Positions 41,151 to 61,090 of a stretch of DNA of 64,000 nt are shown here, piece after piece; positions within the stretch are counted from its first letter, which is position 1, and every line of letters begins with the position of its first letter. Both the position numbers and the translations under genes were made by a program. The stretch comes from a virus (Duplodnaviria > Caudoviricetes). The DNA lies in the IMG/VR virus record IMGVR_UViG_3300028393_004061, positions 1 through 64,000 of that record; one strand, 5' to 3'. The notes under the pieces are model-generated. The model was given only the letters and a program-made list of their open reading frames with translations. It made no database searches and was not told where the DNA came from.

Positions 41151-41852
41151 ATGATAATACAATCTTTATGGATAGGAAATAATTTAAGCAGAATGGAGGT
41201 TTCATCCATAAAGTCATTTTTATCTTTAGGATATACTTATCATTTGTATTCTTATTCACATATAAATAATGTTCCCAAAGGCGTAAAAATTTTAGATGGA
41301 AATGAAATTATAGATAGATCTGAAATTTTTACTTATAATCTTCCAGATCATCTAGGGGGCAATAGCTTTTCTGCATTTTCTAATTTTTTTAGATACAAAT
41401 TACTTTATGAAAAAGGTGGCTGGTGGGTTGATACTGATGTTTATGCTTTGAGACATTTGCCTTTAAATGAATATGTTTTGGCAAAAGAAAATGAAAATAA
41501 AATTTCTTCATGTATATTAAAATTTCCTCCAAAACATAAATTTAGTAAGATTTGTTTTGAAAAATGCAAAGAGAAAAATAAAGATAATTTAAAATGGGGA
41601 GAGACTGGACCATTATTGGTTACTGAGGTTGCCAAACAAATGAAATTAGAAACTTTTAAAGTACAAGAATTTTTTCCTATAAATTATGATGAGATTGAAA
41701 TGTTTTTTAAACCGATAAATATTCCAAGTTCTTATACGATTCATTTTTGGAATGAAATGTGGAGAAGAAAAAAAATATATAAAAATAAAGTATATGATAA
41801 AAAAACTTTGTATGAAAGACTTATTTCTACTTTTGAAACAAAACTTTTATAA
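41151..41852 (+). CDS. GT32-like (DxD sugar-binding) glycosyltransferase
   Basis: IQSLWIG; FSNFFRYKLLYEKGGWWVDTD; WGETGP.L; YTIHFWN. Confidence 0.85.
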   Translation: MIIQSLWIGNNLSRMEVSSIKSFLSLGYTYHLYSYSHINNVPKGVKILDGNEIIDRSEIFTYNLPDHLGGNSFSAFSNFFRYKLLYEKGGWWVDTDVYALRHLPLNEYVLAKENENKISSCILKFPPKHKFSKICFEKCKEKNKDNLKWGETGPLLVTEVAKQMKLETFKVQEFFPINYDEIEMFFKPINIPSSYTIHFWNEMWRRKKIYKNKVYDKKTLYERLISTFETKLL

Positions 41853-42401
41853 TAATAAATTTAAAAAACTTTTTTTACTTTTAATCTTTAGTAAAAAAGT
41901 ATAATCTTTTGTCCACAATAAATCATAAATGTTTTGTTGAATTACACGCATGACAGCTTTTTGTACTTGTTTTTTTTGCCAGTCATCTCCAAGTAATAAA
42001 CCGTCTTTTTTCAATAGCGGAAAACATTCTAGTAAATCCCAATACACGCTTTCCTCTTTGTGGCAAGCATCCAAATAAATAAAATCAATACTTTCTTTTT
42101 TAAAATATTTTTTTATATTTATAGATTTATCTTCTATGATATTTACTCTATTCAAAAAATCATATTTAAATAAATTATTTTTAAAATATTGTTTTGTTTT
42201 ATTTGGCCATATATCAAAACAATTCAATTTTATATATTCGTTTTTTTTAAGCATAAATATGGCAGATCTTCCTTTCCAACTTCCAATTTCTACTATAGTT
42301 GATTGAAGATTGTATGAGGCTAACAATTCACTAATTACATTTTCATGTTCTTCAACCATCCAATTTTCATGTAAATCATCATATTTATTTGTAATTGCCA
42401 T
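41847..42401 (-). CDS. Class I SAM methyltransferase (Methyltransf_24-like)
   Basis: IVEIGSWKGRS; IDFIYLDACH..V..D....LK..G...GDDW. Confidence 0.85.
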   Translation of the reverse strand: MAITNKYDDLHENWMVEEHENVISELLASYNLQSTIVEIGSWKGRSAIFMLKKNEYIKLNCFDIWPNKTKQYFKNNLFKYDFLNRVNIIEDKSINIKKYFKKESIDFIYLDACHKEESVYWDLLECFPLLKKDGLLLGDDWQKKQVQKAVMRVIQQNIYDLLWTKDYTFLLKIKSKKSFLNLLL

Positions 42402-43078
42402 TATATCTCTATTTTTTTGGGCAAATGTTTTTCTATAATTTTTTTATATTTATCTAAATTCAATTTTGGAATATTGTAAATAGACTTTGTAAGTTTATCA
42501 TGTTCTGTGAATGGTAAAATGTATTTATCTATCATTTTTTTATCATATGAATCTGCGTATTTATAAGAATTTTTTAAATTTATGCTATGATATCTTATAA
42601 GCCATAAATAATTTTCTGATAAATATGGTTTTAATTTCATGTATGCAAACTCATCATGATTCCAATTCGTTATACAATTTTTCCAACCAATATTTTCTTT
42701 ATGCTCACCAACTATTCCGTTGTCGCAAACAATATTTTCTGGTAATTCATCCGTAAGAAGTAATATTTTTCCAAAATCATGAAGAATTCCTGCCACAATG
42801 AATTCTTCATCAATAACTTTTTTATTTTCCATACTTTCTACAACTTGTAAAGTATGTATCCATTGATTCGTACAATAAAGTTCCTTATCGGTAGGATCGA
42901 TGCACAATGAAAGTTTTTCAATAAGACTCCATGGTTCGACTAATCCAAAAATTACATTTTTATATTTTTTGTTTAAATCTTCTATTTGATTGGCACTTTG
43001 ATTCCAATGAGCCTTTTTGATTTTTCTAGCATTGCCATCGAATTCCATCTGATTTAAATTATTGTTAGACTTTAGCAT
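42401..43078 (-). CDS. myo-inositol oxygenase (MIOX)-like HD-domain di-iron enzyme
   Basis: IDPTD, QWIHTLQ, LHDFGK, IVCDN, WNHDEF, IRYHS, EHDKLTK match the MIOX substrate and metal motifs in order. Confidence 0.75.
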   Translation of the reverse strand: MLKSNNNLNQMEFDGNARKIKKAHWNQSANQIEDLNKKYKNVIFGLVEPWSLIEKLSLCIDPTDKELYCTNQWIHTLQVVESMENKKVIDEEFIVAGILHDFGKILLLTDELPENIVCDNGIVGEHKENIGWKNCITNWNHDEFAYMKLKPYLSENYLWLIRYHSINLKNSYKYADSYDKKMIDKYILPFTEHDKLTKSIYNIPKLNLDKYKKIIEKHLPKKIEI

Positions 43079-43092
43079 TTTTTCTCTTTGAC

Positions 43093-43785
43093 TTATAAAA
43101 GAATATCTTTATATTGTTGGCCTTTAAGCCATATATCATTTTTATAATGAATAATTTTTACATTAGATGGAAAAACTTCTTTAAAATAGTAAAAATTATA
43201 AATATCAGTTGGTACTGTTAAAATTTTCAATTCATTATAATAAATTAAATCATTTCTCTGAAAATCTAAATTTAAAATAATATTTAATGCTAATTGATCA
43301 TTTTTATGTGTTTCAGACATTTTTATCCATTTAGATAAGAAGTTTATGGTTTGTTGTGTGTATTTGAAAAACATAACTCCTGCATTTATTTTTCCCATAA
43401 CGAATCTATGATCTTTTACAGGTTCATTTTTTAATTCTGATTCTCTACGAATTGTTAAACCTATGTCAAAATCTTTTTCTTTTATTTCGTTCAAAGGTTG
43501 ATATAGAACTGCGTCTGCATCAAGATAGACTATTGTTTTTTTATATTCCAGCAAAGCATCAAAAATAATTTGTGGTTTATGTATAGCCTTAGATTTCCAT
43601 GTGTTGTTTACATGGCAATAAAACCCATCTTTTTGAAATGTTTGATTTTTAACAATATATGACTTTCCATAACCAAGATTTCCAAGATCATAAATAACTG
43701 GTGTGTAATTTAATTTGATTGTATTTTTAATAGACAATTCAACAATTTTTTTAAATTTTTTATTAGCAGCAGTTAATATAATCAT
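43093..43785 (-). CDS. Nucleotide-diphospho-sugar transferase (GT77-like)
   Basis: KPQII..AL.....IVYLDAD; INAGVMFF; NDQ.ALN; KIIHY. Confidence 0.75.
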   Translation of the reverse strand: MIILTAANKKFKKIVELSIKNTIKLNYTPVIYDLGNLGYGKSYIVKNQTFQKDGFYCHVNNTWKSKAIHKPQIIFDALLEYKKTIVYLDADAVLYQPLNEIKEKDFDIGLTIRRESELKNEPVKDHRFVMGKINAGVMFFKYTQQTINFLSKWIKMSETHKNDQLALNIILNLDFQRNDLIYYNELKILTVPTDIYNFYYFKEVFPSNVKIIHYKNDIWLKGQQYKDILL

Positions 43786-43786
43786 T

Positions 43787-44770
43787 TTATAAATTCTTTA
43801 TAAATTTTGCAAAATCATATGTTAATTTATTTATATTCCAAGATTCTATTAATTTATTTTTATTGTCTTCTAAAGTTTCATGAATATTTTCATAATTTGA
43901 TAAAACCATTTCTATTTTTTGCTCCAAGTCGCAAAAATCTGGCGAACATGGAATATATCTTTTTCCATTTTCAAATATATCAATAGGATAGCAAAAAACA
44001 TGATTACTATTTGGTTTAATCAAAACTGTTTTGGTATACATAGATTGAAAATCTCTATAATTCCATTCCCCCATACCCCATGGAGATAAGCAAATTTTAG
44101 ATTTATTTAATATGTCTTGATATGTTTTTTGATCAAGTGTTATTTTTCCATTTTTTTCTGCATACAAAAAAACATTATATTTTGATTTCAATTCGTTTAA
44201 TTTTTTTACAACTATATTACGATGCCAATTCAATATATTTGGTTTACTTATACCATCATAACAAATATTTCCAACAAACATCACATCATATTCTTTTTTA
44301 CATGATGGCAAATTTTTATAAGATAAAAATCTATCTTGTATTGATGTTGGTATTAGACATTTAATTTTTTTTAAATTGTCACAAGATATTTTTATATTTT
44401 GCTCTTCATTTTCACCTAATTTTGCATAATTATTTAGTAATTTGCAATGGTATCTTCCAGAATACACATCTGAATTATGCAACTTTTCATCTCTTAAAGT
44501 TGTTGTTTTTATTATAGATAAAACATCATTTCTATCAATTGCCTCCCTAACATGTTTATGATATAATATCGAAGAATCTGCTCTCTCTATAATAATTTTA
44601 GGTTGTTTGTTTTCAATATATTCAGGATATAATCTGCTATGTATTAGTAAAATGTCTGCATTATTTTTTGTAAAGCTTATTCCATAGTCCTCTAAATTAT
44701 ATTTAAGTATTGGCGAAGGCTCCGTTTTTTCTGTTCCAATATCACCCAAAATAGGATTTATTCGAATCAT
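43787..44770 (-). CDS. GT-B glycosyltransferase (Glyco_trans_1_2-like), paralog A
   Basis: YDVMFVG; SKICLSPWGMGEWNYRDF...VLIKP. Confidence 0.7.
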   Translation of the reverse strand: MIRINPILGDIGTEKTEPSPILKYNLEDYGISFTKNNADILLIHSRLYPEYIENKQPKIIIERADSSILYHKHVREAIDRNDVLSIIKTTTLRDEKLHNSDVYSGRYHCKLLNNYAKLGENEEQNIKISCDNLKKIKCLIPTSIQDRFLSYKNLPSCKKEYDVMFVGNICYDGISKPNILNWHRNIVVKKLNELKSKYNVFLYAEKNGKITLDQKTYQDILNKSKICLSPWGMGEWNYRDFQSMYTKTVLIKPNSNHVFCYPIDIFENGKRYIPCSPDFCDLEQKIEMVLSNYENIHETLEDNKNKLIESWNINKLTYDFAKFIKNL

Positions 44771-45486
44771 AATTTTATCCTATTTTTTAAAAACAAATTA
44801 AGCTCATTTTTTCTATATCCATGAAAATGTATTATTTTTGTTTTTGAATTAAAATATTCACATATTGGAGCATAAGTATTACCTATGCTCCAACTTGTAT
44901 TATATTCTTTATTTAAAATCAATCCATTTAATTTTATACATATAAATGTAAAAATTAATTCATCTAAAAATGTAATACTCAATAAGTTTTTCTTTTTTTC
45001 CCAATATTCTTTAAAAAGAGAAGAAATCAAATTTGAGTTTTGAAAAATACATCCTCCATTTAACTTTTCTCCTATTTCTGGCCATGCTGCAAAAGTCTTT
45101 TGGCCTAATTCTTTTGGCATAGCCATGCAGGTTTCTAAATCATCTATTTCATCTATATTCCTAATAATTAAACAATCTAGATCAAGAACTAGGCATCTCC
45201 CTAGATAATCAAAGGATTGAGATTTCATCCAACCAACCTTATGCAATACATCACTTTTGTAAGGTGGTTCATGATCAATTATCTTTACCACATCATATTT
45301 CCATATTTTGGGAATTTTTGTAGTCTCATCGGTCAATAATATTGGTTCCATTTTTGTTTCGCTTCTTTTATAAAAATCTAACCATATATTTAAAAGATTT
45401 TCCGAAACAGAGTGATGTTTTCTTTTAGTGTCTAACTTTTCATCAAAGTATATAATGCTTATTTTTGTTTTCATAATACAATCCAA
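44767..45486 (-). CDS. GT8-like glycosyltransferase
   Basis: LVLDLDC (DxD), NGGCI, DELI, IIHFHG. Confidence 0.65.
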   Translation of the reverse strand: MDCIMKTKISIIYFDEKLDTKRKHHSVSENLLNIWLDFYKRSETKMEPILLTDETTKIPKIWKYDVVKIIDHEPPYKSDVLHKVGWMKSQSFDYLGRCLVLDLDCLIIRNIDEIDDLETCMAMPKELGQKTFAAWPEIGEKLNGGCIFQNSNLISSLFKEYWEKKKNLLSITFLDELIFTFICIKLNGLILNKEYNTSWSIGNTYAPICEYFNSKTKIIHFHGYRKNELNLFLKNRIKL

Positions 45487-46213
45487 TAGTTTTTTCTATA
45501 AATGGCTTTGCCCAAAAAATGCAAAAAGGTATATTGACTTTTTTTATGTTTTTGTGAATATATAATATATTTTTTATATTTTTTATATTCCTTAAACATG
45601 ATATAGAACATATTGTTTTATTTCCCACATTTAAATTTTTTTTTATATGTATAAAATTTAGAAAATCAATATGATCATTTACTGATTGGCTTGTTTTGAA
45701 AACTTCTTCCTGTAGCTTAAGAACACCTTTTTTAGTCATGGCAAAATTATTTGAATGAAGTTTTCTTTTTTGTTTGAAATTGAACCATGGCTGACTAGGC
45801 AATTCTTCGTTTGGATACATGACACTTGTAATAAACTCACAAGAATCCCAATATATCAAATCGTAGGAAAAAATATCTTTCACATTCAACAAACTATCAA
45901 TTAAATCTGGTGAATATAAATCATCATCGTCTGTAAATAAAAAAATAGAATTTGAGTCACAATCTAATACTTCAGACCAAGTAAATAATTGTTTAGATGG
46001 AATCTTTTTCCAATTATCTAATGCTATATCAACTATTTTTTGTCTAAATTCAAAGTACTTATATAATAATTTTTTATCCCATTCTTTTATCAAGTCTAGA
46101 ATTATTTTCATATCCCATGGTCTATTTTGTTGTAAGAAATTTTCATAATTTAATTCTTTATAATTCACTTTATTGCTTACATAAGTATAAACATTGATAT
46201 TTTTATATGCCAT
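45443..46213 (-). CDS. Hypothetical GT-A-like protein
   Basis: FLFTDDDD acidic motif; start moved to 46213 (MAYKN) because the longer version overlaps the divergent gene. Confidence 0.55.
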   Translation of the reverse strand: MAYKNINVYTYVSNKVNYKELNYENFLQQNRPWDMKIILDLIKEWDKKLLYKYFEFRQKIVDIALDNWKKIPSKQLFTWSEVLDCDSNSIFLFTDDDDLYSPDLIDSLLNVKDIFSYDLIYWDSCEFITSVMYPNEELPSQPWFNFKQKRKLHSNNFAMTKKGVLKLQEEVFKTSQSVNDHIDFLNFIHIKKNLNVGNKTICSISCLRNIKNIKNILYIHKNIKKVNIPFCIFWAKPFIEKTIGLYYENKNKHYIL

Positions 46214-46226
46214 GATTTGATTATTT

Positions 46227-46778
46227 ATGATTATAAAACCAAAAAATAGAATTGAACTTTTAAACATTTTACCTAAAAATGGCATAGTTGCTGAAATAGG
46301 AGTTAAAAGTGGTCTGTTTGCCAAGCACATTTATGAGATTTCACAACCCAAAAAAATATTTTTGATAGATTGTTGGGAAAGTCAGAAAGGATCTTACGAA
46401 ATTGATTCTACAAATAATCAAAATCATGAAAAGTGCTATAAAGATGTATTAAATCATTTTGGTAAATATAAAAACGCAATAATCATAAAAGATTATTCGC
46501 ATAATGCTTGCAAATGCTTTGAAAATAACTTTTTTGATTGGGTTTATATTGATGCCAATCATACTTATGATGCAATTTTTAACGATATAAATAATTGGTG
46601 GCCACTGATTAAAAATAATGGGTACATATGTGGACATGATTATTTTACAGATTATTGGGTCGATGTTGAATTGGCAGTTAATAACTTTTTAAAATTAAAT
46701 AAAAAAAATCTATATGCTTTAACCTTATCGAAATATCCTAGTTGGTGCATTAAGAAAAATGAAATTAAATTAATATGA
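46227..46778 (+). CDS. Class I SAM methyltransferase (Methyltransf_24-like)
   Basis: VAEIGVKSG; IDCW; FDWVYIDANHTY...D...W...K..G.I.GHDY. Confidence 0.9.
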   Translation: MIIKPKNRIELLNILPKNGIVAEIGVKSGLFAKHIYEISQPKKIFLIDCWESQKGSYEIDSTNNQNHEKCYKDVLNHFGKYKNAIIIKDYSHNACKCFENNFFDWVYIDANHTYDAIFNDINNWWPLIKNNGYICGHDYFTDYWVDVELAVNNFLKLNKKNLYALTLSKYPSWCIKKNEIKLI

Positions 46779-47488
46779 AAGAAATTAGAATAATAGGCAT
46801 GATGCGATCTGGACATCATGCAATTGCAAACTGGATTTTCAATCAAGCCAAGGAAACTGTTTTTTTTATAAATAGGATTCAAGGAAAGAAAATTCACTAT
46901 ACAAATATAGATTTTACCTTTTGGAAACCAGACTATTTTATCTACAATTTTGAAGATGAAAAAATTGAACAGGTTATTGAGGCAATATCAAGAATTAAGT
47001 TTTTTTATGACTTAGAAGAAAACTATAAATATATAGTAGTAATTAGAGATCCATATAATTTATTTGCAAGTAGAGCAAAAAAAGAAGAAGATCTTAAAAG
47101 TGTTGGCAAGAATACAACTTCTATGGTTGGAAATTTAACTTCCGAAGCAATTGAATTGTGGAAAGAATTAGCCTATGAATATTTAGATAATAAATCCATA
47201 CTTAAAAACAAAATATGTGTAAATTATAATTTATGGTCATCATGTAAAAAATATAGACAAAAATTAGCTAAAAAAATTGGAATTTATTTTACAGATGAAG
47301 GATTTAGAGAGGTACCAGTTTTTGGCAATGGAAGTAGTTTTGATTTCATGAAATACAATGGTAATGCACAAAATATGAAAATACATGAAAGATATAAGGA
47401 ATACTCAAACTGTTCTTGGTTCAAATCTATATTCGATAAAGAGACTAAAGAATTAAGTCAACATATATTTAAAATATCTCCATTTTAA
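46775..47488 (+). CDS. Sulfotransferase-like protein
   Basis: GMMRSGHHAI 5'-PSB loop; VIRDPYN..ASR 3'-PB motif. Confidence 0.7.
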   Translation: MKEIRIIGMMRSGHHAIANWIFNQAKETVFFINRIQGKKIHYTNIDFTFWKPDYFIYNFEDEKIEQVIEAISRIKFFYDLEENYKYIVVIRDPYNLFASRAKKEEDLKSVGKNTTSMVGNLTSEAIELWKELAYEYLDNKSILKNKICVNYNLWSSCKKYRQKLAKKIGIYFTDEGFREVPVFGNGSSFDFMKYNGNAQNMKIHERYKEYSNCSWFKSIFDKETKELSQHIFKISPF

Positions 47489-47505
47489 AACACATAAACA
47501 TTATA

Positions 47506-48486
47506 TTAATTTTTTTGTAAATATTGATTGTATGACTCTATAATTTCTTTTGCCCAAATTTCAGCCAACCAATTTTCATTCCATGAAGATAAAATTTTAT
47601 TTCTAGCTTGGACTCTCATGAATTCTAAATTTTTCCAATTATTTAAAATATAATAAATTTTATCCATTAAATCTGAACAATCAACATTAAAAGGAACATA
47701 ATAATTATTTTTAAAAATATTTGGTAATGAAACAACATGGTCACTATTTGGCTTTAGAAGAATTGCACCACAATAAATTGCATCAAAATCTCTATAACAC
47801 ATTTCTCCCCATCCCCAAGGAGAAATACAAATTTTCGAATTCAACAAAGAATTTATCCAATCTTTTCTTTTTAAAATTTTATTTACAAGTTTACTACAAT
47901 TTAATTGTTCTAATTTTTGACTTATAGATTTTCTATGACAAAAAATTACAGGGGAATCTTGCCACATATTGCAAAGATAATTTACATCTATTTTTCTTTC
48001 TTGTTTGTAATTTATTTTTTGTCTTCTTACTTCATTGAATAATTCTTGACAACAAAGAGGAACCATACATTTTATTTTATTTAATGCTTTTTCAGACATC
48101 GAATTAGTAAAAACCAATGAATCATTCAATTTAAAAGCATTTTTGATTAATTCAAAATGATATCTATCTGTTCCGCAATTATTTATTTTTTTTGGATCAC
48201 ATATAGATGTTTTAAATATTCCCAAAACATTTTTTTCTTCGGCCATTTCTCTTACACATTCATTATGCACTATGCAAGAATCTGCTCTTTCTAAAATAAT
48301 CGTAGGTTTTTTTACTGATAATGCTTTTTTATGATGTGATATAAGTATGTCATAATTAAAGTCGCTAATAGTAATTCCATATTGTGCAAATTTTTCTTTA
48401 CATCTTAGTAAAGGAATTATTTGATCTATTGCTTCTTTTCTTTCTTCCAAATTAAATTTTACTTTTATATTTTTATATTTCAACAT
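47506..48486 (-). CDS. GT-B glycosyltransferase, paralog B of 43787-44770
   Basis: Shares IxERADS, KC.(I/V)P, SKIC.SPWG.GE..YRDF, KPNS.HV. Confidence 0.7.
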   Translation of the reverse strand: MLKYKNIKVKFNLEERKEAIDQIIPLLRCKEKFAQYGITISDFNYDILISHHKKALSVKKPTIILERADSCIVHNECVREMAEEKNVLGIFKTSICDPKKINNCGTDRYHFELIKNAFKLNDSLVFTNSMSEKALNKIKCMVPLCCQELFNEVRRQKINYKQERKIDVNYLCNMWQDSPVIFCHRKSISQKLEQLNCSKLVNKILKRKDWINSLLNSKICISPWGWGEMCYRDFDAIYCGAILLKPNSDHVVSLPNIFKNNYYVPFNVDCSDLMDKIYYILNNWKNLEFMRVQARNKILSSWNENWLAEIWAKEIIESYNQYLQKN

Positions 48487-48494
48487 ATGCTAAA

Positions 48495-49340
48495 TTATAA
48501 CAAATTAATATAATTTTTTCCATGTTTGTTTAAAAACTCTTTTAAGCTTACTTGGTTTGATAAATTGCTTATATTTAATTCTTCTGCCGAACTCAAAATA
48601 GAATCGTGTATTGGTAAATTCCATTTTTTGCAAAATTTTACACCATTGTATAATCCCATCAACCTAACTAAGCTTCTTGAATCGGAATAATTATAATCAA
48701 TATAATTGTGATGCAAATGAAGCTCGTTGCACTCAATTGGAATAAAATTATATTTTTGATTGTAAGCACTCATGTAAAAATCAATGTCTGGAAATCCCCA
48801 ACCAACAAAACTACCATCAAATCCACCACTCTTGTAATATCCTTTTTTGGTAAAAGCAACACAACCAGACATAGGATTTTTTCTTCTTATGGCATCTATA
48901 GGATTTGAATATACTCTTTGATCTTCTATTACAAAATGTTTATTTTCTTTAAAATTATCACGCACACTTTTTATTGTTTTAAAATCATGATCTTTCAAAA
49001 ATTGATATAGATACTTTGGAAAAACAAATGATTTGTCATCAACTTTTGAATAAATTAATTCAAAGTAGTTTTTAGGCAAAATTCTATCTGAATCAATATA
49101 AATGATTTTATCATTATTTGATTTTTCTATACCAGCCTCAATAGAATTTTTCCAACAATAAAAATTATGATTTCTTTTGACCTCTACATATTCATAATCA
49201 CAATTAAAATTAATTTTACCATCAACACTTATTATAATTTGACATGATTCAAATCCATCCATCTCTTTTAAAAAATCTAATGTTTGCAAAAGGTTTCTTT
49301 TTCTGTCAGTAGAATATAAAATTAAAATGCTATATTTCAT
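48495..49340 (-). CDS. GT2/GT7C-like glycosyltransferase
   Basis: IYIDSD; GGFDGSFVGWGFPDIDF (GT7 GWGxED-like); LHLHH. Confidence 0.75.
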   Translation of the reverse strand: MKYSILILYSTDRKRNLLQTLDFLKEMDGFESCQIIISVDGKINFNCDYEYVEVKRNHNFYCWKNSIEAGIEKSNNDKIIYIDSDRILPKNYFELIYSKVDDKSFVFPKYLYQFLKDHDFKTIKSVRDNFKENKHFVIEDQRVYSNPIDAIRRKNPMSGCVAFTKKGYYKSGGFDGSFVGWGFPDIDFYMSAYNQKYNFIPIECNELHLHHNYIDYNYSDSRSLVRLMGLYNGVKFCKKWNLPIHDSILSSAEELNISNLSNQVSLKEFLNKHGKNYINLL

Positions 49341-49409
49341 TTTTCTTTTTTTAAATTGTGTAAACTTAAACTTATATATCTATAACAATTAAAATATTTT
49401 TAATCTATT

Positions 49410-50705: not shown

Positions 50706-50742
50706 AAACTTAAAAGTATTTATGAATAATATTAAAATTTTA

Positions 50743-52158: not shown

Positions 52159-52163
52159 GTTTT

Positions 52164-52169: not shown

Positions 52170-52201
52170 TGATAATTGCAAATGTTTAATCTATTAAATT
52201 C

Positions 52202-52978: not shown

Positions 52979-54402
52979 CAGTACTATTAGGATTTTATCT
53001 TGGTCATGACAGCAATATCGCAGTTTCTATAAATGGAAAAATAAAATATAGAAAGTCAGAAAGATATTTTCAAAAAAAACACCATAAAGCAAATTTACAA
53101 TTCGTATTTGACACTTTGAATGATTGGGGAATTGATAAAGTTGACTATTGTGCATACACAGATGGAAATAGACAAAATTTAGGTATATGTCAAAAAAATG
53201 AATTTTTTTGCGATGGATCATTGAAACAATTTAAAAGCTATTGTCTAGATCATCATTATGCTCATGCTTTAAGTCTTTGGCCTGTAATTGACACAGAAAA
53301 AATAAACTATTCCGTATCAATCGATGGAAGAGGAGATTGGAATAGAAGCATGATGGTAATAAAAAACCCAGCTAGAAATCCAACAATAGTAAAGTCGCAA
53401 GATTCCCTTGGCATGGGATATGAGTTTTATCTAATGGGTAAAATGCTTGGGTTTACAGGAATGGAATATGACTTTGCTGGTAAACTTATGGGATTACAAT
53501 CATATTCAGAAGATGATATTGTTAAATTTGGTTTGCCAAAATTGAAAAATACAAGTTATAAAACAAGCCTTCTGTATGGAGATAACAATGCTTATTCTAC
53601 CTACAAAGAATGGCATGAGTATTGGTGGAATTATGTAAAAAATGTATTTGATTTTCCTAAAGATTCTATCATTTCATATACTGGAGGATGCGCACAAAAT
53701 TCTGTTTATAACTATAGATTAAAAAAAATGTTTGAAAATATACATATACCACCACATGCTTATGATGGTGGACTTTCTTTAGGATGTTTGGAATTCTTAA
53801 GAATAAAATATGATTTAAATCAATTTGAAAATACTGATTTTCCATTTTGGCAAGACGATTCAATAGATGAACAACCAACATTAAAAACAATAAAATATGC
53901 AGCAGAATGCATCTCCAGAGGCAAAATAATAGGTTGGATGCAAGGATCTGGCGAACTCGGCCCTAGATCTTTAGGAAATAGATCGATTTTAATGAATGCT
54001 ATAAATCCAAAAAACAAAGATATATTAAACGATAGAGTTAAAAAAAGAGAAATGTGGAGACCATATGCTGGTTCAATACTCTCAGACTTTACCACACAAT
54101 ATTTCGACATGGATAAAAGTGAATATATGTTATATGCCTGTAATGTCACAAATGGGAACATACCAGCGGTAACACATGTTGACAACACTTGCAGAATGCA
54201 AACCGTTAAAGGTGGAATATTCGCAGAGCTTATTTATCAATACTACAAATTGACAGGAATTCCATTAGTTTTAAATACTTCTTTAAATGTTATGGGAAAA
54301 CCAATAAAATCCAAAATAGAAAACCCAATAGAACTATTGCAACAATGTAATCTTGATTACCTTTTTGTTGGAAATAAAATATATCACCAATTAAAACTAT
54401 GA
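52975..54402 (+). CDS. O-carbamoyltransferase (NodU/CmcH/TobZ family)
   Basis: GHDS, DHH.AHA, IDG.GD, GKLMGL, GG.AQN, GELGPRSLGNRSIL, KKRE.WRP, HVD.T.R.QTV, LNTSLN. Confidence 0.9.
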   Translation: MTVLLGFYLGHDSNIAVSINGKIKYRKSERYFQKKHHKANLQFVFDTLNDWGIDKVDYCAYTDGNRQNLGICQKNEFFCDGSLKQFKSYCLDHHYAHALSLWPVIDTEKINYSVSIDGRGDWNRSMMVIKNPARNPTIVKSQDSLGMGYEFYLMGKMLGFTGMEYDFAGKLMGLQSYSEDDIVKFGLPKLKNTSYKTSLLYGDNNAYSTYKEWHEYWWNYVKNVFDFPKDSIISYTGGCAQNSVYNYRLKKMFENIHIPPHAYDGGLSLGCLEFLRIKYDLNQFENTDFPFWQDDSIDEQPTLKTIKYAAECISRGKIIGWMQGSGELGPRSLGNRSILMNAINPKNKDILNDRVKKREMWRPYAGSILSDFTTQYFDMDKSEYMLYACNVTNGNIPAVTHVDNTCRMQTVKGGIFAELIYQYYKLTGIPLVLNTSLNVMGKPIKSKIENPIELLQQCNLDYLFVGNKIYHQLKL

Positions 54403-55109
54403 TACCAGTTATAATAAATAATAGAAACAGATTGACTCATTTTAAAAGTCTTATAAATTGGCTTCAAAAAATAAATTGTAGAATTATTGTTCTCGATAAT
54501 GATTCTACATATGAACCATTAATTGAATATTATTCAAATATATCCAATGATGTTGAGATTTGTTTTCTCGGACAAAACTTAGGACATCAAGCTTTGTATA
54601 GTTGGAAATTACATCAAAAATTTAATGAAAAGTTTTTCATATACACCGATTCCGATGTTGTTCCAACCGATCTATGCCCATTGAATGTTCTTGATTATCT
54701 TGTAGAAAATAAAAGCAAATATAGAGATTATCACAAAATAGGACTTTCACTTAAAACTGACGACATACCAGATCACTACCAACATAAAAAATTAGTTTTA
54801 AAATGGGAAAACGATTTCAAGAAAAAAAACTTAAATGATTTTTATATTTGCCCAGTAGACACTACATTTGCCATCTATGAAACAAAAAGCTTGGCATCTG
54901 AAAACCATATTTTATCGCCATGCCTAAGAACAAAAATACCATACGAAGCAAGACATATGCCTTGGTACAATGATACCAATAAATTAAATGATGAAGAAGC
55001 ATATTACATATCTCATGCAAATGCAAGGTTTCAAAACATACATGGAAAAAACATACCAGTTGGAATGTGGACTCAACTAGATAAGAATAAAGTTATAAAA
55101 GTTTTTTAA
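54399..55109 (+). CDS. GT2-family glycosyltransferase
   Basis: IVLDNDST, YTDSD, VDTTFA. Confidence 0.75.
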   Translation: MIPVIINNRNRLTHFKSLINWLQKINCRIIVLDNDSTYEPLIEYYSNISNDVEICFLGQNLGHQALYSWKLHQKFNEKFFIYTDSDVVPTDLCPLNVLDYLVENKSKYRDYHKIGLSLKTDDIPDHYQHKKLVLKWENDFKKKNLNDFYICPVDTTFAIYETKSLASENHILSPCLRTKIPYEARHMPWYNDTNKLNDEEAYYISHANARFQNIHGKNIPVGMWTQLDKNKVIKVF

Positions 55110-55926
55110 AACCTTTAACTGCAAAATGACAATCACGAAAGCAAGGCAAGTCAGATGAACAATCTTTTTGTAAATTTATAATTCTTTCAAAATCAAGAGA
55201 TGACCATTTGCTTTCGTATAAATTTCCTATCTTCATTTCACATCCATAATCATTAGTACAAGCCAAAGCGGTGCCATCTGGAAGCACTACTGGCCTTTTT
55301 TTCTCATGAAGCTTATCGCAAGTAACAGGATGTAATGATTTTTTTATATTCAATTGTATTAATCCGACACTTTGCAAATTACCAGACCTAGAAATAATTT
55401 CTTGAAACTTATGATTAAGTTTATGTTTGTTTAATTTTTCATTTATGCTTTCAAAATCTTTTTCATTAAATCCAACTTCTAAAAAACATGAATTAGGTAA
55501 ATACTTTTTTATTAAACCCAACTTTTGCCAAATACTCTCATCGAAATTTGGCATCATTGTTTTTTCTCCAACATGGAAATTGACATGAACTTTCTTGCAA
55601 TTGGCCAAAAAGATTAAATCGTCTTCTGTAATTTGATAACCAGTTGTAAAAATCACATATCTATAAACCAATTCTGTGGCTTCGCACAAGGAAACTAAAT
55701 TTCTCCAATCCTTCAAAGCTAACGGCTCACTAAAACCAGCAAAATAAACTTCAATTAAGTGTTTGTCTTCTGTGGCGTTATCGATAATTCTTTTTAAGTA
55801 ATCAACCGATAAAGTTTTATTTTTTCCGTAATCTGATTTTAAAAACTTTGATTGAGGACAATAACTGCAATTTATTGGACATCCAATTCTTAAATTTAAT
55901 TCAATAGATCTATAATTATGGTTCAT
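55093..55926 (-). CDS. Radical SAM protein with C-terminal SPASM/Twitch-like domain
   Basis: CPINCSYC; FAGFSEP; C...VVLPDG....C..D....IGNL...C..C; likely start MNHNY at 55926. Confidence 0.8.
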   Translation of the reverse strand: MNHNYRSIELNLRIGCPINCSYCPQSKFLKSDYGKNKTLSVDYLKRIIDNATEDKHLIEVYFAGFSEPLALKDWRNLVSLCEATELVYRYVIFTTGYQITEDDLIFLANCKKVHVNFHVGEKTMMPNFDESIWQKLGLIKKYLPNSCFLEVGFNEKDFESINEKLNKHKLNHKFQEIISRSGNLQSVGLIQLNIKKSLHPVTCDKLHEKKRPVVLPDGTALACTNDYGCEMKIGNLYESKWSSLDFERIINLQKDCSSDLPCFRDCHFAVKGFKKLL

Positions 55927-56560
55927 AAAAAAATTGTTTATTCTCCAACTCTTTTGGGCCATTCGCACCATATTTTGTCACATCGACACTTTTATAATAA
56001 TCGACAATTCTCTGAAATCCTGTTCCATATACATCCATTTTTCTAGTTATATTAAATGATGTTGCGTTGGGATAAAACGAAGGAACGCAATCAAAAAAAT
56101 ATCCTTCTATTCTAATTCCTTGTAATTTACTTATAAATTTAATATCACGAAGCTTTTCTTTTATACATATCAAATGATTGGTTTGATATGCACCCATGTT
56201 TGTCCATCTCTTCTCATGAGCCAAAATAACTTTATGTCCTGATACTATTTTTTGAGACAGCTTTTTGAAGTTACTTCCACATGACATTGTATCATGTAAC
56301 AGAAAAACATATTCAGATCCTCGATATTCAATTTCAGATAAATGAATTAAGGCAGAATATTCATATGCGTTATAAGGAACGCAATAAGTCTCAATGTTTT
56401 GATATTGAATAACTTCATTACATTTGCAAATTACAATTATTATTTCATTATCTAAAACTCCACAATTGCTTAAACTTTTTATGATCACAGGCAAAGTTTT
56501 TAAATAATATATTGAATTTGAAGCAACAAGATATTTTATCTTTTTTTGATTCTTTAACAT
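55916..56560 (-). CDS. Hypothetical protein, possibly GT-A-like
   Basis: YE..AL....YVFLLHDT, a pattern common in glycan loci. Confidence 0.5.
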   Translation of the reverse strand: MLKNQKKIKYLVASNSIYYLKTLPVIIKSLSNCGVLDNEIIIVICKCNEVIQYQNIETYCVPYNAYEYSALIHLSEIEYRGSEYVFLLHDTMSCGSNFKKLSQKIVSGHKVILAHEKRWTNMGAYQTNHLICIKEKLRDIKFISKLQGIRIEGYFFDCVPSFYPNATSFNITRKMDVYGTGFQRIVDYYKSVDVTKYGANGPKELENKQFFYEP

Positions 56561-57033
56561 AATTTATACCAAATTGGAATATTTCTTTTTTTCCAAGTGG
56601 CTATGTGAGATTTTCCTTTTATGTAATAGTTTTTATAACCTTCAATTGGATCTTTAAGCTTTAATTCTTCTGGCATCGCTTGGACAAATTCAGTCATTTC
56701 TATATTGAGTATGCTACAAGCGTTTTTTAGACATTCCTCTATAATAGATCTGCACTTATGATCTTTTTCATATCTATATGAATATTCCTTGCAAAGCTCC
56801 ATGCCCAATTCACAAAGCCAAATGAAATTACCCATACTTTTACCAGCCCAAATTGTACATGGATGATTGATATGAGTAGATTTATATGGAGTCTTTATAT
56901 CCTTTTGATTTAATACAGTACAAAGAATTTGTGCAGTCTCTAATGACATCTTAACAACATGTTTGTCCATATGCCATTGAGCAGCTTGCTTTGGATTTTT
57001 ATCTAATGCAAATATATTCACGATTAAATTCAT
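56554..57033 (-). CDS. Pyrimidine-dimer DNA glycosylase family protein
   Basis: NIFALD.NP..AAQ.H.DKHVVKM.LE.AQ.L; H.NHPC..W; F.QAMP; Y..YY. Confidence 0.8.
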   Translation of the reverse strand: MNLIVNIFALDKNPKQAAQWHMDKHVVKMSLETAQILCTVLNQKDIKTPYKSTHINHPCTIWAGKSMGNFIWLCELGMELCKEYSYRYEKDHKCRSIIEECLKNACSILNIEMTEFVQAMPEELKLKDPIEGYKNYYIKGKSHIATWKKRNIPIWYKLC

Positions 57034-57048
57034 CCTTGTCTTTGAAAT

Positions 57049-57462
57049 CTAAATAAGTTTGCGGAAACTAATGCCAATACTTAAAAGCTTTTCTTTTATT
57101 TCCATGATGGTCGCATTACCGCAATTTCTTAATGCTCTGATTTCATTTTCAGTTTTTTTAGTTATTTCGCCAACAGTAGCCAATCCAGACCTTCTCAAAG
57201 CTTTCCTAGCCCTAGTTGAAAAACAAAGCGTCTCAATCGACATATTCATGACTTCATTTATTGCATCAGCAGGAACAGTTTGCATCTTGCTCAAAAGCCA
57301 GTTGTTGATATCTTTGACATGATACATTTCCATATCTGTTAATTTACGATATTTCTCCAAAACATATATAGGTTTAGGAAAACCATCACTAGACACCAAT
57401 TCATCGATATCATTATCATGAACAGATAGCATAATCACAAGATCTTGTTTGCGTATGAACAT
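57049..57462 (-). CDS. AlpA-like HTH fused to an RNA polymerase alpha-CTD domain
   Basis: FIRKQDL...L........FPKP (AlpA); SIETLCFSTRA..AL...G..TV..I......I...RN.G.....EI...L (alpha-CTD). Confidence 0.75.
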   Translation of the reverse strand: MFIRKQDLVIMLSVHDNDIDELVSSDGFPKPIYVLEKYRKLTDMEMYHVKDINNWLLSKMQTVPADAINEVMNMSIETLCFSTRARKALRRSGLATVGEITKKTENEIRALRNCGNATIMEIKEKLLSIGISFRKLI

Positions 57463-57473
57463 TTCAAATTTCC

Positions 57474-58019
57474 TTATTTGTTAGATTTAGATTGACTGAT
57501 CTGTGGCTTGATAATTATCTTCTTTTTTTCAAGCATAGCCTTATCAAACCATACCTTCCACAACAACCCAATAGAGTTCTTCGTTTCTTCCTCGTGAATA
57601 ACCAAAGGGCCAAAATCAACGAAGTTTTTACCACCTAAATACAAGTTACTAATCTGAACAAGACTATATCTAGCACATTGACTAACTAATGCATCTTCAT
57701 CGCTGACAAGTTCAACTAATTCAGTCACATACTTTTCTTGATACTTATGTGCAGCCAAAGCAGCGGCAGCCTTAACCCTTTTGTCGGAACGCCCAAGAGA
57801 TGCAGTAAGCATGACTTCATCGCAACGACATAATTGATTGGCTAAAAACAAAACATATTGCCAATCAGCTATTATCTTTTGCTGCTCATTCGAAGGAAGC
57901 CTACTCATTCCACCAACTGGAGGAGATTTAGGCGGGGGTAATGGAGGTCAGCCAGCGTAAATTTTGGCATTTAAACCAAGATATAGGCCTACCAATAAAA
58001 TAAACATAATTTTTTTCAT
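57474..58019 (-). pseudogene. Secreted HEAT-repeat-like protein interrupted by one in-frame TGA (pseudogene, readthrough or error)
   Basis: AAGGA RBS, MKKIMFILLVGLYLGLNAKIYAG-[TGA 57948-57950]-PPLPPPKSPPVGG-MSRLPS...; HEAT-like D.RVK.AAALA. Confidence 0.55.
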
Positions 58020-58089: not shown

Positions 58090-58950
58090 ATGAAATACTT
58101 TGTTAGTGCTACGCTTTCGCCACAAGTGCAATGGCAATTAGAACTTATGATAGAGAGCTTCAAATCACTTGGAATTGAAGATAAATTATTTATTTATTTG
58201 GCAGTAGATGGAACACCAAATTACCTCGATAATTATTCGAAAAATATCAAATCTCATAAGAATCTTATAAAACATATTAATTATGGAAGAAAAAAAGGAT
58301 TCGAACCATTAAATACGGTTTTTAGTATCGTTAATGCAATAAACGATGGAATCATTCAAGATGAATTCGTGTTACTTCCTACCGATTGCATCATTTATAA
58401 AGAACTTGAAGAAATTGAAGAAGTTGATAATATATCTTTTTGTAAGTTCCAAACAGATCCATTGTTTACACCAGAACTAATCAATAAAGAAATAGATCTT
58501 AAAAACTTTGACTTAAATGTTTCTGAGATATCATCAGATTCTTGGCCATATGCTAGTAGCGTTTTTCACTTCAGAAATTTTTCAATAGATTTCTTCAATG
58601 AACTTGGAATAATAAGTGAAGAATATGTGTTTAATCAAATTAAAAACAAACTAGAACCTTGGAACAAAACAGTTCAAATCGCATTAAATGTAGAACTTAA
58701 AAAGTATCTTGGAAAATATTCATCATTACAAACAAGTGAAATGACATGTAATCTATCATCCAACAAAGTAAATAACTTTATTCATTACGAAAGTGGATAC
58801 TATCCAATATTTAACAAAAATATGTTTCTATTCAACCCGATTTCTTTCGGCAACCCAATTGAAATACTAGCATACAACGCACCAACACTTGCGTTCGCTT
58901 ATACCAGTGGAATTGCACAAAAATATCTAAAGAAAAACAAAAATGTATAA
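58090..58950 (+). CDS. GT-A-like protein resembling peptide O-glycosyltransferases (GT95/GT96-like)
   Basis: WQ.E....SF..LG; Y....F.PLN; EFVLLPTDC; IHY; strong AAGGAG RBS. Confidence 0.4.
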   Translation: MKYFVSATLSPQVQWQLELMIESFKSLGIEDKLFIYLAVDGTPNYLDNYSKNIKSHKNLIKHINYGRKKGFEPLNTVFSIVNAINDGIIQDEFVLLPTDCIIYKELEEIEEVDNISFCKFQTDPLFTPELINKEIDLKNFDLNVSEISSDSWPYASSVFHFRNFSIDFFNELGIISEEYVFNQIKNKLEPWNKTVQIALNVELKKYLGKYSSLQTSEMTCNLSSNKVNNFIHYESGYYPIFNKNMFLFNPISFGNPIEILAYNAPTLAFAYTSGIAQKYLKKNKNV

Positions 58951-60021: not shown

Positions 60022-60032
60022 AGGATACTTTA

Positions 60033-60284
60033 ATGTTTAAGGAACAAGAATCGAACGAAATACTTGGCATTGGCAATGAAGTTGTAAAATTCATTGAAAA
60101 GGATAGCGATGATGTGATCTGCTATATCGGAAAGAAAGATGAGAAAGATGTTATCTTCTTCCATAAGCCAATGACACCAGAAATTATAATTGCTATCTCA
60201 AATATTCTAAGCAAAAAGAAAATGAGAAAAGCCCTTGTGAAAGGCAATTATAAAAAGGCACAAAAAATAGCACAAGAACTTTAA
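60033..60284 (+). CDS. Hypothetical protein
   Basis: 83 aa, AAGGA RBS. Confidence 0.65.
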   Translation: MFKEQESNEILGIGNEVVKFIEKDSDDVICYIGKKDEKDVIFFHKPMTPEIIIAISNILSKKKMRKALVKGNYKKAQKIAQEL

Positions 60285-60377
60285 AACTAATCAATAATAT
60301 TGCGAAATAAAATTTTAGTTTTTATTGTGGATAGTAAATAATATAACAAGGATGTTTTATTTTGGCATGGATGCCAA

Positions 60378-60383
60378 TATATA
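60378..60383 (+). promoter_or_regulatory. Putative late promoter variant TATATA, 5 nt before ATG 60389
   Basis: TATATA-TTTTC-ATG. Confidence 0.4.
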
Positions 60384-60388
60384 TTTTC

Positions 60389-61090
60389 ATGATAAATTAT
60401 TATAAAAAATTAATTTATATCCATCCTCCAAAAACTGGTGGATCTTCTATTGTTGATCTTTGGGGAGAAAAATCACCCATACCAGAAGAACAAGGAAAAT
60501 ACGAATCACTTCCAGTACATCATTCAATAAGATTTTATAAAAACTTTAATTTTAATCTAAATAATTACTTCATTTTTGCAACAACAAGAAACCCTTGGGA
60601 TAGAATTGTATCAGCATATTTTTGGCTGGTAAAAAATGAGGAAGGAAGATTACCTAAAAATATAGAAGGTAAAGATTGTAACTTTGAAGAATATGTCGAA
60701 TGGCTTATGGTAAATAATACCAGTATAAATCATAATAAAAACAATCGACATTGGTCTCACCCCAATCCAGTATGGGATTGGATTACTATAGACGATCAAG
60801 TGTCTGTAGATTATTTTTGCAATATCCATACATTCAAAGAAGACTTTCAATTCGTTATTGATATTTTAGGCACAAAGAAAATTTTGCTCCATTCTAATAA
60901 ATCATCACACGATGATTACAGAAAATATTACACAGATAAATTGGCCGAGAAAGTCGCATTTATCTTTAATAAAGATATCGAATACTTTAAGTATAAATTT
61001 GATGATAAAAATTATTCTGACTTTAATCGAATCGTAAATCTAGAAAAAATAGAAGAATATAAAAGGCTTAAAAAATTTATAAAAATTTAA
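60389..61090 (+). CDS. Sulfotransferase family 2 (Sulfotransfer_2) protein
   Basis: IYIHPPKTGGSS (5'-PSB), RNPWDRIVSAY (3'-PB), KD.E.F.Y; start moved to MINYY. Confidence 0.85.
   Translation: MINYYKKLIYIHPPKTGGSSIVDLWGEKSPIPEEQGKYESLPVHHSIRFYKNFNFNLNNYFIFATTRNPWDRIVSAYFWLVKNEEGRLPKNIEGKDCNFEEYVEWLMVNNTSINHNKNNRHWSHPNPVWDWITIDDQVSVDYFCNIHTFKEDFQFVIDILGTKKILLHSNKSSHDDYRKYYTDKLAEKVAFIFNKDIEYFKYKFDDKNYSDFNRIVNLEKIEEYKRLKKFIKI

Follow-up and report, generated by a model that had tools for sequence, protein, structure and literature searches.

Gene Content of the Locus

We analyzed a 64,000-nucleotide stretch of the IMG/VR virus record IMGVR_UViG_3300028393_004061 (positions 1–64,000; Caudoviricetes), referred to below as the window, and focused on an accessory variable region at positions 41053–57473. 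These 16.4 kb lie between two backbone genes and hold an island of glycan-related enzymes together with a few extra cargo genes. A preliminary description had read positions 41151–61090 as one ~20-kb pathway in which about 13 glycosyltransferases (GTs), a homologue of the inositol oxygenase MIOX, two sulfotransferases, and a sulfatase would build and edit a glycosaminoglycan-like polymer. Its enzyme identities largely hold, whereas its borders and its GT count do not. Several of the genes recur in one IMG/VR contig (L001) and three metagenome contigs (L002, L003, and L036), which are described below and used here to note orthologues.

Pfam calls were counted as confirmed only above the curated cut-off. 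The island contains at least seven supported GT-A enzymes, a DUF5672 protein, and two weak GT-B-like paralogs. The GT32-type enzyme, with a DXD sugar-binding region (41151–41852, + strand), matches Gb3_synth with 44.9 bits (1.6e-11) and Gly_transf_sug at 1.1e-6 and has orthologues in L001, L002, and L003. Orthologues in L001, L002, and L036 were found for both the GT77/Nucleotid_trans enzyme (43093–43785, −; Pfam 2.4e-8) and a GT8-like GT-A enzyme (44767–45486, −), whose ESM Atlas structure matches GT8 clusters with TM-scores of 0.74–0.78. ESM Atlas structures also place the product of 49410–50093 (+) among viral and bacterial nucleotide-diphospho-sugar transferase clusters (TM-scores of 0.71–0.89), identifying a GT8/GT77-like GT-A enzyme that has three paralogues in L002. 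As called earlier, GT32, GT77, GT2, and DUF5672 all score above the Pfam cut-off.

A further GT-A fold enzyme (52202–52978, +) opens a three-gene unit at 52202–55109 and belongs to a family without a Pfam model. Its AlphaFold2 (AF2) model has a predicted local distance difference test (pLDDT) score of 89.1, and the Foldseek matches listed for it are GT-A enzymes (RmlT, TarS, GT8, glycogenin, and Mimivirus R699); the motif D96-S97-D98 (DSD) is invariant in the family. The unit ends with a GT2 enzyme (54399–55109, +) that matches Glycos_transf_2 with 24.3 bits against a cut-off of 23.3. The DUF5672 protein (50088–50705, −) matches its family at 1.3e-16. For 48495–49340 (−), which had been labeled GT7C/CHGN, four GT-A Pfam families match, all just below their cut-offs; this gene, with orthologues in L001, L002, and L003, is better described as a generic GT2-like GT-A enzyme than as a chondroitin-type one.

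The genes proposed as two GT-B paralogs (43787–44770, −, paralog A, and 47506–48486, −, paralog B) are indeed paralogous, with 36% identity, and have orthologues in L001 and L002, respectively. Their putative GT-B nature is weakly suggested by RXYLT1_C matches below the cut-off (E = 0.023 and 0.0011). No supported GT assignment was obtained for 45443–46330, 55916–56560, or 58090–58950, and the earlier count of about 13 GT-like proteins shrinks to those given above. The first of these encodes a conserved protein (probably 45443–46207, −; open reading frame (ORF) called at 45443–46330) with an orthologue in L002 and an acidic DDDD motif that is invariant at D93 and D95 and almost invariant at D94 and D96. 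Its homologues align from residue 42–47 onward only, and the true start is probably an internal Met. The 104-bp overlap between this called ORF and the divergent ORF at 46227–46778 (+) is probably an artefact of longest-ORF calling. Searching its family profile against PDB sequences, or with hhalign against the 52202 family, gave no match.

Two Methyltransf_24 enzymes, an O-methyltransferase at 41847–42401 (−; Pfam 1.8e-18) that adjoins the MIOX-like gene and a second methyltransferase at 46227–46778 (+; 6.3e-15), are confirmed as previously proposed, as are the MIOX homologue, the sulfatase, the carbamoyltransferase, and the radical S-adenosylmethionine (SAM) enzyme considered below. The products of the island ORFs lack any predicted membrane segment or signal peptide, except for one short hydrophobic stretch in 44767–45486. 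Scans of 41–64 kb with Pfam and NCBIfam, the scope of all such absences below, revealed no Wzx, Wzy, ABC exporter, or priming transferase. PHROGs and permissive Pfam searches of the leftover ORFs returned nothing useful.

A Strain-Variable Cassette at a Genomic Hotspot

The left border of the variable region is a CCA-adding-enzyme-like gene (39580–41052, +) that matches phrog_2244, and the right border is a HEAT-like gene (57474–57908, −). Orthologues of these flanking genes were located in 15 related phage contigs, four regions of which (G002, G003, G007, and G012) were retrieved and compared. The CCA-like gene is found in 14 of the 15 at 44–65% identity, and 53% identical orthologues of the HEAT-like gene bound the variable region in G002 and G003. 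The backbone runs, by start position, 37329, 38647, 39194, and 39580 (CCA-like), then the variable interval, then 57474 (HEAT-like), 58090, ClpP, 59575, and 60033, followed by a Sulfotransfer_2 gene, 61087, a C39 peptidase, and 62586. The segment 57474–63221, including the Sulfotransfer_2 gene, is therefore conserved backbone, and the genes at 56–60 kb are not glycan-related, so that the single ~20-kb pathway contracts to the unit 41053–57473.

What lies between the flanks differs from phage to phage. The variable interval spans 1–4.5 kb in the four compared relatives and 16.4 kb in the window; likewise, the gap from the CCA-like gene to ClpP measures 2.5–6 kb in nine relatives and 17.9 kb here. 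G003 carries ~4.3 kb with an SNF2-like protein (948 amino acids (aa)) and two small genes (L274, 3659–7837), G002 carries ~4.5 kb with two C5 DNA methyltransferases (L275, 10474–14642), and G007 and G012 carry ~1 kb each. By eye, one small ORF at the G003 hotspot resembles an acylneuraminate/KDO cytidylyltransferase. The MIOX-like gene, the sulfatase, and the new sulfotransferase described below were found in none of the 15 phage relatives (8–69% complete). The variable region of the window also carries DenV-like and alpha-CTD-like genes. Its guanine-plus-cytosine (GC) content is 24–29% across 42–56 kb, compared with 31–37% elsewhere in the window, a contrast which argues that the island is more than a chance grouping.

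The sharpest comparison comes from a near-identical sister strain. Contig L278 (IMGVR_UViG_3300023184_006956) shares 96.6–98.3% DNA identity with window positions 29808–41047, and its CCA-like protein is 98% identical. The similarity ends exactly at 41047, at the stop of the CCA-like gene, beyond which L278 carries at least 9.6 kb of different low-GC genes (11503–20848) before the contig stops short of the right border. This alternative cassette encodes a WbqC-family protein, a Sulfotransfer_2-like protein, and a leucine-rich-repeat protein. Inspection of its translations by eye further suggested a DegT-like fragment, a DxD glycosyltransferase, a short-chain dehydrogenase/reductase, two 2-oxoglutarate (2OG)-type oxygenases, and a TIM-barrel/methyltransferase fusion. 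Although a protein query retrieved L278, IMG/VR gave no exact match to a 29-mer taken from the end of the CCA-like gene. Flanking repeats that would mark an insertion were not found; the only repeats detected were chance matches in AT-rich sequence and the paralog pair.

The region 41053–57473 is thus a coherent unit that behaves like a serotype cassette: horizontally acquired, strain-variable cargo at a genomic hotspot. An assembly chimera was considered and ruled out, since conserved phage backbone lies on both sides of the island and island proteins occur on other contigs: nine carry an identical copy of one protein, and two more proteins are found at 95% identity. When GenBank phages were searched at the nucleotide and protein levels, the island, the MIOX-like protein, the new sulfotransferase, and 49410–50093 had no matches and the Sulfotransfer_2 protein had one weak match; the island is therefore unrepresented in isolated phages. 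L275 (IMGVR_UViG_3300049009_000811) has 54% GC over 18 kb compared with 31% in the window, and its backbone proteins are still 36–69% identical, which is a very large compositional shift inside one phage group.

A MIOX-like Oxygenase in Glycan Clusters

The gene at 42401–43078 (−) encodes a short, 225-aa MIOX-like HD-domain diiron oxygenase that matches Pfam MIOX (PF05153) with 57.6 bits against a cut-off of 25. The match consists of two stretches, mostly in the C-terminal half of the model. In the alignment with mouse MIOX (2huo; E = 8e-8), H75, H100, D101, H141, H164, and D194 correspond to the six metal ligands and K104 to the catalytic Lys (mouse K127); both Asp residues of the DxxD loop and several inositol-contacting positions are also retained. 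The ligands, the Lys, and the DxxD Asp residues are invariant across 18 homologues, except for H75, which is kept in at least 90%. The architecture is otherwise incomplete. The aligned core begins at query residue 38 opposite chain position 66, with ~26 aa fewer before it, and an internal segment of ~30 aa (2huo chain 151–179) is missing; the two aligned stretches place query residue 123 opposite chain positions 150 and 180, respectively. Relative to MIOX proper (~285 aa), the phage protein shares the H...HD...H...H...D set, the Lys after the HD dyad, and an above-cut-off Pfam score. Relative to other HD-domain diiron oxygenases, it has no PhnY/TmpA partner. Genes of the phage type lie in glycan clusters with GLF, DUF707, or GT2 and not beside inositol or phosphonate catabolism.

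Four phage-type MIOX-like sequences form one clade (SH-aLRT branch support of 99) nested among bacterial sequences, including one from a Myxococcota metagenome-assembled genome (MAG). Across metagenome loci of MIOX-like homologues, a gene for UDP-galactopyranose mutase (GLF) is found no more than 1.5 kb away in 35 of 81 cases and one for DUF707 in 27 of 81; in species-representative genomes, mostly Betaproteobacteria with some Alphaproteobacteria, the corresponding counts are 22 and 20 of 60. Eighteen species genomes among L084–L141 (Betaproteobacteria/Casimicrobiaceae MAGs) carry the triad GLF (−), MIOX-like (+), DUF707 (−). GLF adjacency occurs in three separate tree clades, one of which is the phage clade, but most cases come from a single betaproteobacterial clade and therefore represent few independent events. 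Other lineages (Actinomycetota, Eremiobacterota, and others) show GT2 (16 of 119 ORFs) and an amine-oxidase/NAD_binding_8 flavoprotein (14) as neighbors, and Methyltransf_24, sulfotransferases, PMT_2, and polysaccharide-export families occur as well. The 25 most frequent neighbor families of ~140 homologues include no inositol synthesis or catabolism gene, sugar kinase, or UDP-sugar pyrophosphorylase.

From this context, the MIOX-like enzyme appears to belong to glycan synthesis. Its surroundings make free glucuronate from inositol, the source of uronic acid proposed earlier, an unparsimonious product, and no glucuronokinase, UDP-sugar pyrophosphorylase, or inositol gene was seen here or among the most frequent neighbor families of the ~140 homologues. 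An aminocyclitol natural-product pathway, combining a BtrN-like radical SAM enzyme and a TobZ-like carbamoyltransferase with the MIOX-like protein, was also considered and rejected because inosose synthase and aminotransferase genes are absent and the BtrN match is weak.

Sulfate Addition and Removal

A sulfotransferase of a family without a Pfam model is encoded at 46775–47488 (+). No Pfam, NCBIfam, or PDB sequence match was obtained, and the protein therefore belongs to no named family. Its AF2 model, built on 38 homologues, has a pLDDT of 91.1, and among the Foldseek matches to the PDB listed with E ≤ 0.001, all are 3′-phosphoadenosine-5′-phosphosulfate (PAPS) sulfotransferases (TM-scores of 0.42–0.55). 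An RSG-H loop and an RDP...S motif, which would bind phosphate, are conserved across the 38 homologues: R11, G13, H15, R91, D92, and S99 are invariant, and S12 and P93 are nearly so. By modeled fold and motifs, we assign the protein as a PAPS-dependent sulfotransferase. Apart from one fused form, the 445 homologues retrieved all lack a Pfam domain, and the family occurs on 51 IMG/VR contigs. One 2.2-kb metagenome contig (P0094) encodes a 310-aa protein that is 100% identical over 76% of the new sulfotransferase and also contains a Glyco_transf_25 domain; it may be a fused or rearranged island variant from another strain.

The second sulfotransferase (60362–61090, +; Sulfotransfer_2, Pfam 3.9e-12) is equally real but cannot be counted in the island pathway, as it had been before, since syntenic orthologues are kept in the island-less relatives G003 (81%) and G002 (46%), neither of which has the MIOX-like gene, the sulfatase, or the new sulfotransferase.

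The sulfatase (50743–52158, −; Pfam Sulfatase 171 bits, 4.6e-50) is of the Cys (formylglycine) type. Its best PDB match is human GalNAc-4-sulfatase (ARSB; 1fsu, 8.8e-57), followed by iota- and kappa-carrageenan 4-sulfatases, a mild hint that its substrates may be 4-sulfated, galacto-configured sugars. The CSPTR formylglycine motif and the IIADDLGYGD metal ligands align to ARSB and are kept in the orthologues of L002 and L003. The catalytic domain begins at residue 2 with no signal peptide, from which we infer that the enzyme is cytoplasmic or travels with the virion. As a single query, it retrieved nothing from IMG/VR.

A 292-aa radical SAM protein with a Cys-rich, twitch/SPASM-like C-terminus is encoded nearby at 55093–55971 (−; Radical_SAM 8.4e-10). 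It contains CxxxCxxC at residues 31–38 and further Cys residues at 218, 238, 244, 271, 277, and 281. NCBIfam models of other SPASM-type maturases match weakly, the anaerobic sulfatase-maturating enzyme (anSME) model does not match, and the best PDB match, to the twitch dehydrogenase BtrN, is weak (E = 0.009). Anaerobic sulfatase-maturating enzymes are ~370 aa long, and the gene has no counterpart in L002 or L003. A role as sulfatase maturase is possible.

The central gene of the 52202–55109 unit encodes a NodU/CmcH-type carbamoyltransferase (52975–54402, +; Carbam_trans_C 170 bits, 4.2e-50; NodU 8.2e-30). It is 36–39% identical, over 98% of its length, to the "Nol-like carbamoyltransferase" of T4-like cyanophages and pelagiphage HTVC008M. 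The N-terminal ASKHA-type domain was not detected by Pfam, although the alignment to the phage homologues is full-length.

Recurrence of the Core Module

A search with the MIOX-like alignment retrieved L001, L002, L003, and L036, which share a core with the island at 31–59% identity in rearranged order. All four contain a MIOX-like gene, sulfotransferases, and GT77 and/or GT8-like genes; L001–L003 have Methyltransf_24, GT32, and the GT2-like gene in common, and the shared core also includes the paralogous putative GT and the 49410 family. Methyltransf_24 adjoins the MIOX-like gene in the window, L002, and L003 and lies within 2 kb of it in L001. In L002 and L003, the new sulfotransferase is beside the MIOX-like gene and the sulfatase is also present, whereas no sulfatase was seen in the stretches of L001 and L036 that were examined. 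Further cluster genes are GLF (L002 and L003), DUF707 (L002), a Sulfotransfer_1-type enzyme (L001 and L002), additional methyltransferases, and a second sulfatase (L003). A single 461-aa protein of L036 (10669–12054) joins the GT8-like orthologue to a Sulfotransfer_3-like domain at its C-terminus, physically linking glycosyl transfer and sulfation. Four island genes have no counterpart in L001–L003: those for the carbamoyltransferase, DUF5672, the GT2 enzyme at 54399, and the radical SAM protein.

Because all four related clusters carry sulfotransferases, sulfation is a consistent property of the module, and the sulfatase is a frequent one. The co-occurrence of sulfotransferases and sulfatase with the MIOX-like/GT core in L002 and L003 upholds the earlier proposal of a phage-borne glycan pathway with both sulfate addition and removal. 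That proposal had also named co-occurrence of these genes in relatives as a test. Here the outcome is mixed and not a refutation: phage relatives lack the genes, but they travel as a module in other contigs.

The Phage and Its Other Genes

The window comes from a tailed huge phage with a myovirus-type baseplate module, comprising Phage_base_V (19049–21196), a baseplate J/gp6-like protein (17046–18599), and Tail_P2_I (13870–17037). The baseplate protein is 43% identical to that of LR756511, a 595-kb uncultured phage, and has 298 IMG/VR relatives at 58–97% identity. According to CheckV, related contigs of 251–340 kb are 50–69% complete (340 kb corresponds to 69%), which places these genomes near 0.5 Mb. 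No tRNA gene and no integrase was seen within the window.

Several further genes are worth recording. A 957-aa fibre-like protein (3581–6454, −) contains ~45 tandem Pro/Thr-rich 11-residue repeats (consensus PPN[IV]PTMISFT), which account for an odd GC skew and for a long antisense ORF at 4173–5621. Upstream of it, the paralogs 6477–8741 and 8741–9790 have the same N-terminal domain as this protein. Downstream of the baseplate genes, a single 3538-aa ORF (23610–34226, −) shows repeat-like internal similarity, visible as self-matches in the comparison of L278 with the window, and probably encodes a giant fibre or tail protein. Beside the Sulfotransfer_2 gene, 61087–62587 (−) encodes two backbone proteins, one with a membrane anchor at its N-terminus and the other a C39-peptidase lipoprotein with a lipobox-like LLSGC. 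A RelA/SpoT-like fragment (63392–64000, −) closes the window.

Interpretation

The explanation we favor, to which we assign a probability of roughly 55% as a whole, is a strain-variable, decorated-glycan cargo island in a ~0.5-Mb myovirus-type phage, with a virion protein as the likeliest acceptor. Its parts differ in strength: that this is a decorated-glycan island is highly probable, whereas the choice of a virion protein as acceptor is tentative. Soluble Leloir GTs (at least seven GT-A enzymes and probably at least ten GTs) would build a hetero-oligosaccharide in the cytoplasm of the infected cell from host nucleotide sugars. The two Methyltransf_24 enzymes would O-methylate it, the new-family sulfotransferase would sulfate it with PAPS, and the NodU-like enzyme would probably carbamoylate it. 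The MIOX-like oxygenase, rather than acting as a catabolic inositol oxygenase, may oxidize a sugar or cyclitol diol to give an acidic or aldehyde sugar. The cytoplasmic Cys-type sulfatase could trim or edit sulfate esters, perhaps after maturation by the neighboring radical SAM protein. Carried on a virion protein, the product would make the region a serotype-like glycan coat locus comparable to the fibril-glycosylation clusters of Megavirinae. We prefer a virion acceptor because there is no membrane step, because the many different GTs recall the capsid and fibril machineries of giant viruses, and because the cassette varies in the manner of an antigen.

Several points weigh against this explanation. 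We infer a common product, its substrates, and its acceptor from genes that are individually assigned. The island sits among non-structural genes, outside the structural module. Nucleotide-sugar synthesis genes are absent from the island, and GLF is absent from all 64 kb. A sulfotransferase and a sulfatase in one compartment look futile unless they are separated by time or substrate, and the sulfatase, like its L002 and L003 orthologues, reads GKWN where the family has GKWH (His to Asn; the Lys is kept); the second L003 sulfatase retains the His. The fibre-like protein at 3581–6454 was tried as an island-linked acceptor and rejected, since its repeats occur equally in island-less relatives without co-variation. 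The viral origin of L002, L003, and L036 is not proven. Finally, in cyanophage S-SZBM1, the carbamoyltransferase homologue adjoins a C5 DNA methyltransferase and 2OG oxygenases, and a phage carbamoyltransferase acting on 5-hydroxymethylcytosine is established (PMC8670742), so that part of the island could act on DNA.

This last point leads to a mixed-cargo explanation, in which the hotspot collects unrelated genes and the 52202–55109 unit (GT-A, carbamoyltransferase, and GT2) hypermodifies hydroxymethylated pyrimidines of the phage DNA while the remainder makes a glycan. At the hotspot, G002 indeed has DNA methyltransferases and G003 an SNF2-like gene, the window's own variable region includes the DenV-like and alpha-CTD-like genes, and L001–L003 lack the carbamoyltransferase, DUF5672, the GT2 at 54399, and the radical SAM gene. 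DNA glycosyltransferases, like the carbamoyltransferase noted above, are established in phages (PMC8670742, PMC13326640). However, the carbamoyltransferases with flanking GT genes were those on unmodified contigs (PMC8670742), and no thymidylate-synthase-like hydroxymethylase, TET/JBP protein, or DNA methyltransferase was found among the ORFs scanned in the window, a weak negative given that 64 kb represents only part of ~500 kb. On balance, we consider mixed cargo of this kind improbable.

Remodeling of the host surface is a stronger competitor, although still an unlikely one in our judgment. Here, the soluble GTs and tailoring enzymes would decorate host lipid-linked intermediates of O-antigen, capsule, or teichoic acid at the inner membrane face for export by the host, and the sulfatase would desulfate the host's sulfated glycan precursors; the altered surface would block superinfection or the sticking of progeny to debris. 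In bacteria, cell-surface polysaccharide clusters contain homologues of the MIOX-like protein, the new sulfotransferase, and WbqC, with a Wzt ABC transporter beside a Cyanothece homologue and PMT_2 and Polysacc_synt among the neighbor families. The position of the island outside the structural module is compatible with this explanation, and a strain-level cassette swap also fits arms races over receptors and serotypes. Yet the island scans revealed no flippase, polymerase, ligase, GtrA/B/C-type protein, priming enzyme, or membrane protein, and around ten GTs imply a glycan largely foreign to the host, whose exporters would still need to handle it. No integrase was seen in the window, and huge phages of this kind are not known to be lysogens.

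Least probable of all is the model of the preliminary description, a glycosaminoglycan-like, uronic-acid-containing sulfated polymer made with MIOX-derived glucuronate, a chondroitin-type sulfotransferase, and an arylsulfatase-B-type sulfatase. It draws on the metal ligands, catalytic Lys, and inositol-contacting positions kept in the MIOX-like protein, on the 4-sulfatases of GalNAc and of carrageenan (4-sulfo-galactose) as best solved relatives of the sulfatase, and on a weak match of 45443–46330 to the heparosan GlcNAc transferase KfiA (E = 0.026 over 37 residues). The KfiA match disappears with a family profile, the GT7C and CHGN matches fall below their cut-offs, and the Sulfotransfer_2 gene belongs to the backbone. 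The scans also revealed no bifunctional polymerase GT (HAS, KfiA/KfiC, KfoC, or PmHS type), UDP-glucose dehydrogenase (Ugd), source of UDP-glucuronate or inositol, exporter, priming enzyme, or membrane protein. Neighbors of the MIOX-like genes point to galactofuranose-type heteroglycans, and many different small GTs suggest a hetero-oligosaccharide rather than a disaccharide repeat. A glycosaminoglycan from a phage would be striking if true, but the evidence does not support it.

Relation to Known Systems and Significance

The closest parallel to the favored virion-glycan explanation comes from viruses of eukaryotes. Megavirinae possess clade-specific virion glycosylation clusters of 6–33 genes that include methyltransferases and a sulfotransferase (PMC10117803). 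Like these clusters and the capsid-glycan machinery of chloroviruses, the island is virus-encoded and lineage-variable and combines many soluble GTs with sugar methyltransferases and, as in some clades, a sulfotransferase; synthesis in the cytoplasm, apart from host secretory glycosylation, is proposed here for the island as well. Judged by its predicted soluble GTs and its lineage-variable content, the island has the make-up of a virus-encoded virion glycosylation cluster. It differs in lacking the nucleotide-sugar synthesis pathways and APS kinase of the eukaryotic virus clusters and in containing a sulfatase, a MIOX-like oxygenase, and a carbamoyltransferase, none of which is reported there. 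The glycans of those viruses are chemically proven on virions, whereas that of the island is predicted from genes.

Among phages, mycobacteriophages reportedly modify capsid or tail proteins with their own GTs, a finding mentioned in a genome announcement (PMC11256854). Those enzymes are likewise phage-encoded, soluble, and cytoplasmic and modify virion proteins, but they number one to a few, lie near structural genes in small genomes, and are not accompanied by a sulfation, methylation, or oxygenase module. Bacterial O-antigen and capsule serotype cassettes resemble the island in their low GC content, fixed position, differing glycan gene sets in near-identical strains, and inclusion of WbqC, GLF, GT2, GT8, and methyltransferase genes; the island differs in being phage-borne and in lacking Wzx/Wzy, an ABC transporter, and a priming phosphoglycosyl transferase. 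In rhizobial Nod-factor tailoring, soluble enzymes place carbamoyl (NodU), sulfate (NodH/NoeE), and methyl (NoeI/NodS) groups on one oligosaccharide. The island would provide the same three decorations, and its carbamoyltransferase matches the NodU model, although far under the equivalog cut-off (104 compared with 1000 bits); it has no NodC chitin-oligomer synthase, deacetylase, or acyltransferase.

Two points are new, namely that an island in a huge phage behaves as a hotspot cassette and that the MIOX-like family has a glycan-cluster context. For enzymology, the locus offers as leads a MIOX-like oxygenase family with conserved glycan-enzyme neighbors, a large sulfotransferase-fold family without a Pfam model (445 homologues, 51 viral contigs), and a cytoplasmic formylglycine sulfatase with a lineage-specific His-to-Asn change that is paired with sulfotransferases. 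A more far-reaching and, at present, doubtful idea is that the short MIOX-like proteins constitute a new class of glycan-pathway diiron oxygenases that work with a GLF-type flavoenzyme and GT-A enzymes. Purely hypothetically, they would cleave or oxidize a sugar vicinal diol (for example, C5–C6 of galactofuranose) to a novel acidic or aldehydic sugar, and huge phages would combine this sugar with sulfate, methyl, and carbamoyl groups in strain-specific "serotype" coats exchanged as cassettes at a fixed hotspot.

Virus-encoded glycan coats have been established in giant viruses that infect eukaryotes and in a few mycobacteriophages, but not as a swappable, serotype-like locus in huge phages. 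Different glycan cassettes at one site in backbones that are 97–98% identical provide a handle on the pressure that diversifies them, be it host receptors, grazers, defence systems, or superinfection.

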